Shown piece after piece: positions 6,254 to 21,827 of a DNA stretch of 64,000 nt. The notes under the pieces were generated by a model. That model was given only the letters and a program-made list of their open reading frames with translations. It was not told where the DNA came from and made no database searches. The DNA is taken from the IMG/VR virus record IMGVR_UViG_3300025009_000011, one strand, 5' to 3'. Origin of the DNA: a virus. Positions within the stretch are counted from its first letter, which is position 1. Each line of letters begins with the position of its first letter. Both the position numbers and the translations under genes were made by a program.

Positions 6254-6904
6254 TTACTGCGCTGGCTGAGTTGCTTTCACTTTTTTAAGGTCAGATACTA
6301 GCTCATCCAGCATTTCCCTTGTCCATTCCTTTAGGCTTTCAACTTTGGCAAAAGCATGGACCTGTTCTTCTGAGTAACCTAAATTCTTCATCCCTGCCCA
6401 GAAATTAGGCCACAGTATGGGTCCGGTAGCCGCCTTTTGCTCAACTGGTTTTTGGGTTACCACCTTCTGTTGATTAGGCTTAGGTTGTTCGTTTTTACCT
6501 TGCCCGTTGTTTCCGGTTGCGATATTTGCGTCGTCATCTTCATCTGAGCTAATGCCAAGAATTGCCGACAAAGCATATCTGCGACCATAACTGATGGCAC
6601 TCCCGGCTCCTTGTGCCGTTACCTTGTCAGCCTTTAGGACTAACGGTTCACCTTCAATCCATTCCCCTGATGAGTGCATAAGTAATGTCGTTACCACGAC
6701 GTGTTCTCCATCACCAGAAGGGCTTTGTAGGACGCTTAAACCATGCTTGGCTAGAATTGGTCTAGTGGTGTTAATTACCTCGTTCAACGGGCAATATTTT
6801 GACTTGAAAAATGGGTTATTGGCTGTGTTTTTTGGATTAGAAACTTCACCTTGGAATAGGCTTAACGCCATCGCTATATTAGCTATACTTTCCGACTTGT
6901 TCAT
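6254..6904 (-). CDS. erf: ERF-family single-strand annealing protein
   Basis: NPFFKSKYCPLNEV..GSAISYGRRYALSAILGI pattern, next to a Gp157-like gene. Confidence 0.8.
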   Translation of the reverse strand: MNKSESIANIAMALSLFQGEVSNPKNTANNPFFKSKYCPLNEVINTTRPILAKHGLSVLQSPSGDGEHVVVTTLLMHSSGEWIEGEPLVLKADKVTAQGAGSAISYGRRYALSAILGISSDEDDDANIATGNNGQGKNEQPKPNQQKVVTQKPVEQKAATGPILWPNFWAGMKNLGYSEEQVHAFAKVESLKEWTREMLDELVSDLKKVKATQPAQ

Positions 6905-15479: not shown

Positions 15480-15640
15480 TTATGATCTTTGAACCTCCCT
15501 CCGCTTTAGAAGCGGGGGATTCTTGGGAACACCTCAACCAATGTTGAAGTTTAACTAAGCTATCCCTGTAGTCCCTACAGTTCTTTAGCACTATGCTAAT
15601 AGTCGAAGCCCTTCGGCAAGTATGTTCTTTGCCGCATTTA
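15480..15640 (-). ncRNA. candidate TnpB omega (right-end) RNA scaffold
   Basis: Dense stems at and after the tnpB stop: 15566-15580 CTGTAG/CTACAG, 15532-15549 and 15495-15518. Exact ends not determined. Confidence 0.5.
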
Positions 15641-16685
15641 AGTCTCTGTCGTGTTCAGTATGGCAACTTGGGCATTCCCATGTTCTAAGATTCAAATTTT
15701 TAACTTCCTTGTTGCGATAGCCACAACATGAACAAAGTTGGCTTGATGGGAATGTCCTGCCTATCACTGAAACGATTCGCCCATACCATTTGGATTTATA
15801 TTCTAACATGGTACGAAATTCAGACCAACCAACATCTGCAATAGATTTAGCAAGTTTATGATTTTTGATCATGTTGCTAGTTTGCAAATCTTCAATGCAA
15901 ATGATTTGGTTGTTCCGAATCACCTCAGTAGATAATTTTTGCAAGAAGTCACGCCGACAATTAGCTATCTTTTCATGATGTTTGGCAAGCTTGACTCTAG
16001 CCTTATTGCGGTTTTTGCTACCCTTTTGTTTTCGGGATAGTGAACGTTGGAGCTTGGTAAGTTTTTTCTCCATCTTGCGGTAATATTTTGGATTGTGCAT
16101 CTTCTCTCCGGTTGATAAAATGGCAAAATCCTTAATACCTAAGTCGATGCCGACGAATTGATTGACTTCCGGTAATAATTCAATTTCAGTATCGACTAAT
16201 ATGGATACAAAATATTTACCTGAAGGATTACGCCTAACGGTGGCACTAATGATCTGACCATCAACTTCTCTAGATTTAGCAAATTTAACGAATCCTAGCT
16301 TTGGTAATTTAACCATATTATCGACTATTCGTATATTAGAATTAGTGCATTTACTTGTATATGACTGAACCGGATTGCGTTTTGATTTGAATTTAGGATA
16401 CCCAGTCTTTTCCTTAAAGAACTTTTGATACGCAAAATCTAAATCTTTCAAGGTGGATTGCAATGATGTAGAATCTGGTTCTTTTAGCCATTCAAATTCT
16501 TTCTTTAATTTAGTCAGCATTGCGGAACATCCATTGTAGTTGATAGTTGCATCATATATTTCATAGGCGTTTTTGCGTTCATTCAAAAAGTGATTGTATA
16601 CAAAACGATTACATCCAATAGTTTTGGCTATTAATACTTGCTGCTCATTACTTGGATACAACCTAAATTTAAACGCTTTATGCAA
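15591..16685 (-). CDS. tnpB: RNA-guided endonuclease TnpB (IS200/IS605 OrfB)
   Basis: [11 protein letters not shown] start, [10 protein letters not shown] RuvC-I motif, and zinc finger [32 protein letters not shown] start after GGAGGTG. Confidence 0.9.
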
Positions 16686-20683: not shown

Positions 20684-20751
20684 CTGTGATAACCTTTGAA
20701 CTAGGTTCCTTGAGAACCTTTGAACCAAAAGCTCTGTGAGAACCTTTGATC
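20684..20751. repeat. three iteron-like direct repeats next to an AT-rich tract
   Basis: CTGTGATAACCTTTGAAC at 20684, CCTTGAGAACCTTTGAAC at 20708 and CTGTGAGAACCTTTGATC at 20734. The tract at 20630-20680 is almost pure A/T. Confidence 0.65.
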
Positions 20752-21071
20752 TATTCATTTATCCTAAAAGCAGTTATTTTCTTCCTCGAAAGGACTCCTG
20801 TTTCTTTATCTCTCCAGTGCATTTGCCACATTTGGACAATGTCCCGAAGTTCGTCCTTTGCCCTCTTAACTGCCGATAAACTCAATCCTGTATCTCCTGC
20901 TAAATCCTCATTACTGCGAAAAAAGAAGTCTGTATTGGGACCAGTGTACCTGTGTTCTAGTTCATTAAGTGCAACATAGAGCCACTTTGCGTTGAGGGAT
21001 AACTTCTTGAATCTTTCCTCGTTAAACAATTCTCTCGACAATTCCAGAAAATTGCCTGCTTTTCTCTTCAT
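20751..21071 (-). CDS. winged-helix (Rep/replisome-organizer-N-like) protein
   Basis: FLELSRELFNEERFKKLSLNAKWLYVALNELE..LAGDTGLSLSAVKRAKDEL. Confidence 0.5.
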   Translation of the reverse strand: MKRKAGNFLELSRELFNEERFKKLSLNAKWLYVALNELEHRYTGPNTDFFFRSNEDLAGDTGLSLSAVKRAKDELRDIVQMWQMHWRDKETGVLSRKKITAFRINE

Positions 21072-21240
21072 TATTCAATTCATTCCTTCTGTTTGTATCA
21101 GCTTCGATAGCGTTAGATTAATCCACCAACAGAAGGTAAGTGAATTTTCTAACGCCACCTCAGACGACCTGGCCGGGTCGTAGCTGAAAATTATCAAATT
21201 AATGACACTTATATTATATCATTATTCCTATATTTGGGCA

Positions 21241-21479
21241 TAAAAATAACCCCCACCATTACGGCAGGGGTTAAATCTTTACTCGTTATATAACTGGTTT
21301 ACAACCGTCTGATACACGGTTTTTTGTGTAGGTATGGACTGATTACCATACATGAAGACTCATTAATCTCCCTGGTAGTGGTCGGGTTAGCTCCCATACC
21401 TTTTAGCAGAGGGGTTTTGTCCCGTAGGAGTTATTAACCACTTTTTCCCACCAGTGCGTCTACGTTTCCGCCACTACAC
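21241..21479 (-). ncRNA. about 240-nt structured non-coding transcription unit (class unknown)
   Basis: Runs from the promoter at 21486-21515 to the terminator at 21241-21272 (AACCCCTGCC/GGTGGGGGTT plus ATTTTTAT on the - strand). No ORF with an SD. A long-range helix pairs GTAGTGGCGG (rc 21468-21477) with CCGACCACTAC (rc 21375-21385). Confidence 0.5.
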
Positions 21480-21485
21480 ATTTAG

Positions 21486-21515
21486 ATTATACCTCAGTAG
21501 TTGCATTTTTTGCAA
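21486..21515 (-). promoter_or_regulatory. sigmaA-like promoter of the non-coding unit
   Basis: TTGCAA (21510-21515), 18 nt, TATAAT (rc of 21486-21491). The -35 box sits in a 12-bp-stem hairpin at 21493-21523. Confidence 0.5.
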
Positions 21516-21623
21516 CTACTGAGTAGGCAAAGAAAAATAGAGCGTCCTGATAGTTTCCTACTATTTCGCTCCGCAAAAGATTTCTCTTTTTCTAATAAGT
21601 TAATTATACCATACCATCAATCG

Positions 21624-21827
21624 CTATTCTACCTTACCACTCAACGCTGCAACCGCTACAGTTCCGCCCACGCCTCCTGCAAACCCAACAAGACCCGATA
21701 CTGCCATCTTGATTAGTTCGGAGTCTACAGGCTGCTTAGTGACTCCTGATGAGACAATGAGGGATAGTATAATAAGCACGACTCCCCCTATGGCTATGAT
21801 GGTGGCTTTTTCTCGCATGGTGTTCAT
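21624..21827 (-). CDS. two-TM small membrane protein (holin-like)
   Basis: Two hydrophobic segments, immediately downstream of the endolysin. Confidence 0.45.
   Translation of the reverse strand: MNTMREKATIIAIGGVVLIILSLIVSSGVTKQPVDSELIKMAVSGLVGFAGGVGGTVAVAALSGKVE

Follow-up and report, generated by a model that had tools for sequence, protein, structure and literature searches.

The stretch of DNA analysed here, called the window below, is the 64,000-nucleotide (nt) IMG/VR virus record IMGVR_UViG_3300025009_000011, a phage genome with genes for tail, lysin and packaging functions, ERF, an SNF2 helicase, a methylase, several HNH proteins and one TnpB. Between its lysis genes and a gene for a winged helix-turn-helix (wHTH) protein lies a minus-strand transcription unit, which is the subject of this study. 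A previous reading of the window from its letters alone (the sequence-only reading) suggested that the unit yields a discrete, structured RNA that has its own promoter and terminator and is free of open reading frames (ORFs), and this description holds. The resemblance of the RNA to a transfer RNA (tRNA) went unrecognised there. The RNA body, positions 21480 to 21324, is very probably a member of a large family, so far uncatalogued, that occurs in Bacillota phages and prophages. Our best reading, to which we give a probability of roughly 0.6, is that the window holds an independently transcribed gene for a non-decoding mimic of leucine tRNA (tRNA-Leu), which is handled by tRNA enzymes and carries a swappable cargo module. 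The unit has the following parts, in which bp denotes base pairs.

21523-21241, minus strand: the RNA transcription unit under study.
21493-21523: perfect 13-bp inverted repeat CTCAGTAGTTGCA / TGCAACTACTGAG, with arms at 21493-21505 and 21511-21523 and 5 nt between them.
21486-21515, minus strand: sigma-70-type promoter, with a -35 box TTGCAA at 21515-21510, an 18-nt spacer and a -10 box TATAAT at 21491-21486.
21324-21480, minus strand: tRNA-Leu-like RNA body, 157 nt from U1 (21480) to the discriminator A (21324), no CCA encoded.
21474-21480, minus strand: acceptor 5' strand UGUGUAG, pairing with 21331-21325 (7 bp).
21456-21473, minus strand: U8, G9 and the D arm, GCG(G), loop AAACGUAGA, CGC, with a 3-bp stem GCG/CGC.
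21372-21454, minus strand: long branched arm at the anticodon-arm position, 83 nt, predicted fold.
21354-21371, minus strand: variable-arm-like hairpin GGAGAUU-AAUG-AGUCUUC, 18 nt, 7 bp, predicted fold.
21332-21351, minus strand: T arm with a 6-bp stem GUAUGG/CCAUAC, abutting the acceptor 3' strand.
21325-21331, minus strand: acceptor 3' strand CUACACA, followed by the unpaired discriminator A at 21324.
21303-21321, minus strand: 3'-trailer hairpin AACCGU-GUAUCAG-ACGGUU.
21241-21273, minus strand: the RNA gene's intrinsic terminator, with 12 stem pairs at 21273-21247, then UUUUUAU.

The lowest-energy fold of the 157-nt body is a cloverleaf closed by the pairing of 21480-21474 with 21331-21325, and all 16 scaffold pairs are intact. 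The D arm is of the leucine-tRNA type, with U8, G9, A14 and A15 present, and pair 3-70 is U-A. At the anticodon-arm position, the predicted branched arm consists of a 7-bp basal stem, CUGGUGG/CCACUACCAG, around CUCCUA../..UAUGGGAG and GGG-ACAAAAC-CCC stems. The 103-nt middle, which is predicted to form this arm and the adjoining hairpin, shows no similarity to the middles of other members of the family; the 83-nt arm is known solely from identical copies (locus L112) and is truncated in locus L105. When a 251-nt stretch was compared with shuffled versions of itself, its folding energy gave z = -3.27, and 1 of the 200 shuffles folded as well.

Part of the structure suggested by the sequence-only reading is recovered in this fold. 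Its hairpins at 21303-21321 and 21334-21353 are both there, and so are its inner stems CUCCUAC/GUAUGGGAG and GGG..CCC, for which comparative support is wanting, only identical middles being known. On the other hand, the long-range helix thought to close the 5' region, GUAGUGGCGG with CCG(A)CCACUAC (CCGACCACUAC), can be enforced only at a cost of 8.6 kcal/mol relative to the lowest-energy fold; its 5' strand is acceptor and D-arm sequence that is invariant in the family, and its 3' partner occurs in the window copy only. The only ATG was also said to open a 15-codon frame. A 32-codon ATG frame in fact exists at 21397-21299, and it is not conserved, because the relatives have an unrelated middle.

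The frame that defines the family reads 5'-NNNNNNN-UG-GCGG-AAUAGGUAGA-CGC, then a variable stretch of 38-200 nt, then U-(6-bp stem)-UGCAAAU-(6-bp stem)-NNNNNNN-A. The same frame was found in about 50 other distinct sequences, which come from IMG/VR contigs, metagenome-assembled genomes (MAGs) of Clostridia and named phages. Relatives were gathered via the endolysin and via two DNA patterns, and the member set is biased by these search patterns, including an imposed acceptor sequence. In the first scan, with a 15-nt pattern, 26 of 41 matches were due to chance and were filtered out by demanding the 3' partner. A covariance model, R1, was then built from 24 members, the window and its identical copy being excluded. 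Against the 64-kb window, R1 gives one match only, which covers the full length 21324-21480 at 46.6 bits (E = 1.3e-9). In the fetched loci it yields 57 matches, none of them in loci fetched by chance pattern matches. The next-best kind of R1 match is host tRNA-Leu(UAG) genes, at about 31 bits.

Established tools do not recognise the element. At gathering thresholds, Rfam, which the sequence-only reading had proposed to search, gives no match in the whole window, riboswitches included; at permissive thresholds, positions 20900-21800 give chance-level matches only, the best with E = 0.13, mostly on the terminator and far below gathering. The Rfam tRNA model (RF00005) finds nothing in 20900-21800 even at E up to 10, and ARAGORN calls neither a tRNA nor a transfer-messenger RNA (tmRNA) in the window. 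Other copies of the family are likewise uncalled by ARAGORN and Rfam, though adjoining true tRNAs and ROOL RNAs are called. A blastn search of the region against the INPHARED phages gave no match. The family fits within the known kind "tRNA-like noncoding RNAs"; the family itself is not described in Rfam or in the literature searched. The SPP1 re-annotation (PMC6316719) mentions neither a tRNA nor a noncoding RNA, and the text of a catalogue of 10,006 viral structured RNAs (PMC10690425) does not describe the family.

Known identities were also considered and rejected. A canonical tRNA is called neither by ARAGORN in the window nor by the Rfam tRNA model. A tmRNA is contradicted by the U-A at pair 3-70, by the lack of a tmRNA call from ARAGORN or Rfam and by the short frames, which are not conserved. 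Hammerhead-like CUGAUGAG boxes occur in some middles (L111, L122), with stems that do not suit a hammerhead and with no ribozyme call from Rfam. A true tRNA-Leu gene with an intron, which is spliced to give a decoding tRNA, would also present a tRNA-Leu frame with an insert at the anticodon-arm position. However, at 38-200 nt the inserts fall below the size of a group I intron, no intron family matches, ARAGORN finds no tRNA, and no anticodon-stem halves flank the insert, since conservation is lacking directly behind the D arm and ahead of the T arm. Such a gene is scarcely credible here, and the RNA is very likely non-decoding.

Covariation was examined in 23 distinct spliced cores, members with D-loop inserts being left out. 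In every one of these cores all 16 pairs are standard, and in 11 of them both bases vary, namely in six of the seven acceptor pairs, one of the three D-stem pairs and four of the six T-stem pairs. When the structure is shifted by 1-3 columns, pairing reaches only 27-44%. The descriptor used in the searches demanded perfect acceptor and T pairing. Copies in named phages were found differently, by BLAST with the conserved D arm or T arm alone, SPP1 being fetched by accession. In 11 of the 12 loci from BLAST matches, a perfectly complementary and differing pair of 7-mers lies at the predicted places, such as AUACUCG/CGAGUAU in B025, GCGAUAG/CUAUCGC in BtpYZU01 and GUCACUG/CAGUGAC in VEsP-1; the twelfth was recovered by R1 instead. 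The pair in SPP1 is AACACGG/CCGUGUU. Where the sequence-only reading called for covariation in relatives, the acceptor and T stems of the cloverleaf provide it; the closing helix that it proposed is wrong.

The conserved positions are those of a tRNA core. In alignments A1 and A2, U8, G9, G10, A14, A15, G18, G19, a U48-equivalent, G53, U54, A58 and C61 are invariant or nearly so, the first five being invariant, and 41 of 48 distinct members have A as the discriminator. Of a class II tRNA-Leu, the upper half and the frame of the elbow are retained (a 7-bp acceptor, U8/G9, a Leu-type D arm, a U48-equivalent, a T arm and A73); what replaces the anticodon arm is an unrelated module that is predicted to be folded.

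According to a review, Escherichia coli leucyl-tRNA synthetase (LeuRS) requires A73, A15-U48, G18G19, A20a and contacts that link the D loop with the T loop (G18-U55, G19-C56, U54-A58), and requires neither the anticodon nor the variable arm; charging persists in a tRNA-Leu that has neither an anticodon arm nor a variable arm (Giege and Eriani 2023, PMC9976931). The family consensus, with the Leu-type D arm UGGCGGAAUAGGUAGACGC, holds A73, A15, the U48-equivalent, G18G19, A20a, U8-A14 and U54-A58, but has G55; none of these elements lies in the anticodon arm. Because the consensus keeps the elements that LeuRS reads, a typical member may be bound, and perhaps leucylated, by the host LeuRS; we consider this possible, with the odds leaning against it. 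For the window copy, binding or charging by LeuRS is unlikely. Its D loop AAACGUAGA is 1 nt shorter than the family's AAUAGGUAGA and is without G18G19, and its T loop is an atypical 8-nt UAAUCAGU in place of the 7-nt consensus UGCAAAU, which makes a stable tRNA-shaped carrier or decoy likelier than a chargeable RNA. Loss or reduction of GG together with loss of C56 is also seen in L086, L088, L111 and P100, and the GG-bearing copies inspected retain UGCAAAU. Judged from these sequences, the joint change fits a real G19-C56 contact in canonical members and points to a subtype with a relaxed elbow.

The same features may be read as decay, the window copy being a remnant of the family that is transcribed but functionless. 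The atypical elbow and the low model score suit such a remnant, as do the sister loci L105, which is without the 3' half of the RNA, and L004, which is without the RNA altogether. Against it stand the 16 intact scaffold pairs, the cloverleaf as lowest-energy fold, the intact promoter and terminator, and the identical 157-nt copy behind different flanks in L112. Moreover, a GG-less D loop with a changed T loop occurs independently in P100, L086, L088 and L111, which suggests a tolerated subtype. We therefore regard decay as rather improbable.

The transcription signals agree with a gene of its own. The promoter TTGCAA-18-TATAAT, correctly located by the sequence-only reading, matches the consensus at 10 of 12 positions. 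Its -10 box ends 5 nt upstream of RNA position 1 (5-6 nt in its clade), and in 10 related loci a -10 hexamer, mostly TGn-extended, starts 11-12 nt upstream of position 1. With this placement, the start is expected at the mature 5' end, probably at about nucleotide 1-2 of the tRNA-like body. The -35 box had been described as buried in a palindrome with 12-nt arms. The palindrome at 21493-21523 is indeed perfect and overlaps the -35 box, with arms of 13 nt; it is unique within the window and is missing from L112, where a different promoter, TGATATACT, precedes the identical RNA. The palindrome may serve as an operator, or it may be a small insertion. The intrinsic terminator was also rightly identified. 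It is identical at 33 of 33 positions in the relative L002, and a similar terminator lies at the same place in L003, L004 and L001. The trailer hairpin at 21303-21321 recurs in L112 and L105, and the trailers differ in other relatives.

In sister contigs from the same IMG/VR sample set, the RNA occupies the equivalent site behind the lysis genes. In L002, L003, L126 and L131 the frame and terminator are kept and the middle is unrelated, so that middles differ even between sister phages; L003 additionally holds a tRNA-Ile(UAU). In L105 the 3' half of the RNA is lost, and in L004 the terminator and the downstream promoter are kept and the RNA is missing. In L112, as noted, both the promoter and the flanks are different. 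Because middles are swapped and some sisters hold a variant or no RNA, the locus acts like an accessory cassette whose module can be exchanged.

In L001 (3915-4105), the same slot holds a different promoter-to-terminator RNA made of tRNA pieces. There, a tRNA 3' half (T arm GUCGG-UUCGAAU-CCGAC) lies ahead of a piece like a tRNA 5' half; the stretch has z = -3.06 and no Rfam match, and may represent a permuted tRNA-like RNA of the Y-RNA type.

The exchange of middles between sister phages within a retained frame also suits a different explanation, in which the variable middle is the active part, a trans-acting small RNA that base-pairs or binds protein, and the tRNA frame is a mere scaffold for stability and processing with no role for LeuRS or other tRNA factors. 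Engineered tRNA scaffolds work likewise, and the modules recombine independently, L149 and L157 having the same middle and different D-loop inserts. However, no target was found, the best complementarity in the phage's own genome being 13 nt, which is at chance level, and the strict conservation of Leu elements (A73, the Leu-type D loop) exceeds what a generic scaffold needs. We think this explanation unlikely, though it deserves more weight than decay.

The non-decoding tRNA-Leu mimic that we prefer would work as follows. The transcript would begin at or beside nucleotide 1. The 3' trailer and terminator would be cut off by the tRNA 3'-end machinery of the RNase Z type, and CCA would then be added; many Bacillota tRNA genes encode no CCA. 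The L-shaped scaffold would stabilise the RNA and engage tRNA-recognising proteins, and the swappable central module would be the lineage-specific working part. That the RNA is handled by tRNA-processing enzymes appears somewhat likelier than its opposite.

Several points weigh against this reading. Every member of the family is known from sequence alone. Part of the covariation set was chosen by pairing, and the 100% pairing is consequently inflated and partly imposed. All members have G, not U, at T-loop position 55, and in all of them the acceptor and T stems stack to 13 bp (7+6) rather than 12. Each of these features might be an obstacle to LeuRS, EF-Tu or the processing enzymes. In a minimal tRNA-Leu, disruption of the D/T-loop contacts abolishes leucylation (PMC9976931), and the window copy has the deviant elbow described above, a GG-less D loop with an 8-nt T loop. 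Its R1 score is low for the family, whose members reach 60-99 bits, and there is no comparative support for its central module. Finally, the deletion variant L105 and the RNA-less L004 imply that the gene is dispensable in this lineage.

The neighbourhood of the RNA gene bears on a further explanation, and its features are given here.

22586-21882, minus strand: endolysin (amidase) gene.
21827-21624, minus strand: gene for a holin-like small membrane protein.
21529-21571, minus strand: putative lysis-operon terminator, a hairpin GAGCG..CGCUC that encloses an AUAGU/ACUAU stem, followed by UAUUUUUCUUU.
21213-21221, minus strand: extended -10 promoter TGATATAAT of the next operon, preceding the wHTH gene and then the iterons.
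20751-21071, minus strand: wHTH gene, matching DnaD-like and replication-initiator families.
Downstream of the wHTH gene: TTCAAAGGTTNTCA iterons.

The hairpin at 21529-21571 probably terminates the upstream lysis operon. It was missed by the terminator scan because its loop is too large, and it is common to L112 and L105. Both the extended -10 element and the wHTH gene had been noticed in the sequence-only reading, and the assignment of the latter is borne out by its matches to DnaD-like and replication-initiator families; among the viral contigs searched, the wHTH protein has no relatives. A counterpart of the downstream promoter, TGATATACT, was found in sister contigs L002-L004. Past the terminator and this promoter, a long, conserved, ORF-poor stretch (L002 1640-1870, L003 4280-4470, L004 4090-4290) reads ..aaagccacc..ggcgttaacc..aggacaagggtaatttaaggaatt.. 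and may be a structured 5' untranslated region or a second early-operon RNA. Elsewhere in the window, the TnpB gene at 15591-16685 (minus strand) is of the IS605 OrfB type, with OrfB_IS605, Cas12f1-like TNB and HTH_OrfB domains.

As the RNA adjoins a replication-initiator gene and iterons, it was suggested by the sequence-only reading to be a cis-acting leader, riboswitch or attenuator of the wHTH operon, or else an antisense copy-control RNA. Neither role can be sustained. The RNA is cut off from the wHTH gene by its own strong terminator and by a separate promoter, an extended -10, that follows; in L004 the gene context is kept and the RNA is missing, and no Rfam riboswitch matches. In other genomes the family occurs in unrelated contexts, namely inside the head operon of SPP1, ahead of terS or within tRNA arrays. 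The longest complementarity of the middle to the rest of the window is 13 nt, at chance level (E = 0.07), and the iteron-adjacent position is not conserved across the family. We give this pair of roles next to no credence, and the guess of a riboswitch or copy-control RNA is replaced by a specific, checkable identity.

The distribution of the family is broad. In SPP1 an unannotated copy lies at 6647-6756 in the head operon, with gene 9 on one side and gene 11 on the other. In Listeria phage B025, Brochothrix phage BtpYZU01, Enterococcus phage VEsP-1 and Latilactobacillus phage TMW 1.1365 P3, the copy comes right after a gene for an ArpU-type or unnamed "transcription regulator", and in BtpYZU01 the terminase genes come after it. 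In the Herelleviridae phages Goe17 (Bacillus), EFDG1 (Enterococcus), P100 (Listeria) and AVP, the copy lies within tRNA clusters. Gut-P1, Lenus, WC29P3 and Ln-9 are other unannotated carriers. Genome matches are mostly Clostridia MAGs, and a copy was present in 2 of 150 additional genomes sampled from one phylum with such MAGs. A same-strand tRNA lies at most 1 kb from 27 of 55 copies, downstream in 24 of the 27, and in three copies a tRNA begins 4-5 nt past the discriminator.

Several observations were made beside these copies. Right after the SPP1 copy (locus L172), at about 6768-6813, a mini tRNA-like helix ACGGAC..CGGGUUCAAUUCCCG..GUCCGU is followed by five U and resembles a terminator shaped as an acceptor/T-arm minihelix. 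In L109, a tRNA-like gene at about 507-585 begins 4 nt past the family copy; its anticodon loop, CUUAAUAU, is 8 nt long, and ARAGORN assigns the gene no amino acid, its equivalent in L003 being the normal tRNA-Ile(UAU). ROOL RNAs (RF03087, 297-318 bits) occur in the same tRNA arrays in L082 (5413-5983), L102 (3141-3727) and L127 (720-1280), and the tRNA-Leu-like RNA heads each of these arrays. In a subfamily (L122, L127, L133, L135-L138, L143, L144, L153, L157), G18 and G19 in the D loop are separated by a conserved insert about 60-110 nt long, which is independent of the central module and reads ..GAAUAG-ACAUAU..AUAUGGUAAAACUAAAYGGCG..hairpin..CGCUGAAUGGUAAUA-GUAGAC... In the AT-rich loci L084, L094, L098 and L114, a conserved box AUGCUAGG lies about 20-150 nt past the RNA, followed by a hairpin AAGAACU-UUCCUAGYG-AGUUCU; the box is complementary to the loop of this hairpin, and a pseudoknot could form.

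In P100 (L186, 121500-131384), the tRNAs are annotated on the plus strand, and the ones within 124.5-128.0 kb are assigned by ARAGORN to the minus strand. The family copy at 126402-126543 (minus strand) stops 2 nt short of tRNA-Asn. RNA-seq of the P100-like phage CKA15 showed that unannotated regions near tRNA genes are very highly transcribed; these regions could not be mapped onto the P100 copy (PMC12282133). P100 gp165 ("RNA-binding protein") is probably the Ro60-like protein that is discussed there for CKA15.

Such a protein raises the question of whether the RNA is a Y-RNA-like partner of Ro60 (Rsr). Y RNAs are mimics of tRNA and are known from phages (PMC4201824), and P100-type phages with a family copy encode a Ro60-like RNA-binding protein nearby. 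In the window, however, no TROVE/Ro60 match was obtained among the 40 ORFs scanned, which include all eight of at least 400 amino acids, and no such protein is annotated in the SPP1 record or beside the B025 copy. Nor is there an Rfam match, although the library should include a YrlA model, and the stem that joins the 5' and 3' ends is an acceptor stem and not one for binding Ro. A Ro60 partner is thus very improbable.

A further possibility, which we rate as unlikely and offer tentatively, is that the family is a new class of host-takeover or counter-defence RNA, a tRNA-Leu mimic matured by host tRNA enzymes, the canonical form being bound or leucylated by LeuRS and the module setting what is captured or blocked. 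Possible variants are a decoy for tRNA-directed immune nucleases or for toxins that modify the acceptor end, or else a LeuRS sponge. If the counter-defence idea were true, the rapid swapping of modules between sister phages would represent an arms race. The part of tRNA-Leu that LeuRS reads is kept and the part that the ribosome reads is discarded, which suggests selection for mimicry outside decoding. Phage annotation is usually limited to proteins and canonical tRNAs, and an RNA family was overlooked. A conserved, covarying RNA, with its own promoters in the window clade and apparently transcribed, stands unannotated in the long-studied phages SPP1, B025 and P100. SPP1 with Bacillus subtilis is a tractable system for questions of binding, charging and module function.

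Among known systems, the closest is class II tRNA-Leu (RF00005), with which the family shares the 7-bp acceptor, U8/G9, the Leu-type D arm UGGCGGAAUAGGUAGACGC, the U48-equivalent, G53-C61, U54-A58, A73 and a frequent location in tRNA arrays. Unlike tRNA-Leu, the family has no anticodon stem-loop, carrying a module of 38-200 nt instead, and it has a 6-bp T stem and G55. In tmRNA (SsrA), too, the ends form an acceptor stem beside a T arm, and a large structured domain occupies the anticodon-arm position; the family differs in having a true D stem and in lacking the G3-U70 alanine identity, a conserved tag frame and a series of pseudoknots. Y RNAs (YrlA; Chen et al. 2014, PMC4201824) likewise mimic tRNA, are borne by phages and are unable to decode. 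In YrlA, however, the RNA ends make up the Ro-binding stem and the tRNA-like part is internal. The window ORFs scanned include no Ro60 gene.

The 3'-end tRNA-like structures of plant RNA viruses offer a similar mimicry of acceptor and elbow and are recognised by host tRNA enzymes without decoding. They are cis elements with a pseudoknotted acceptor, in contrast to the free-standing DNA-phage gene and canonical acceptor helix of the family. T4 "species 1" (rnaC) is a stable phage RNA of unknown function that lies among the T4 tRNA genes and is processed with them; likened by description only, it resembles the family as a phage-encoded RNA among tRNA genes and belongs to a different host group. 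In the engineered tRNA-scaffold RNAs of the Ponchon and Dardel design, a cargo takes the place of the anticodon arm, and the chimera gains the folding, processing and stability of a tRNA. Those scaffolds are artificial, while the design seen in the family is natural, conserved and specific to leucine.

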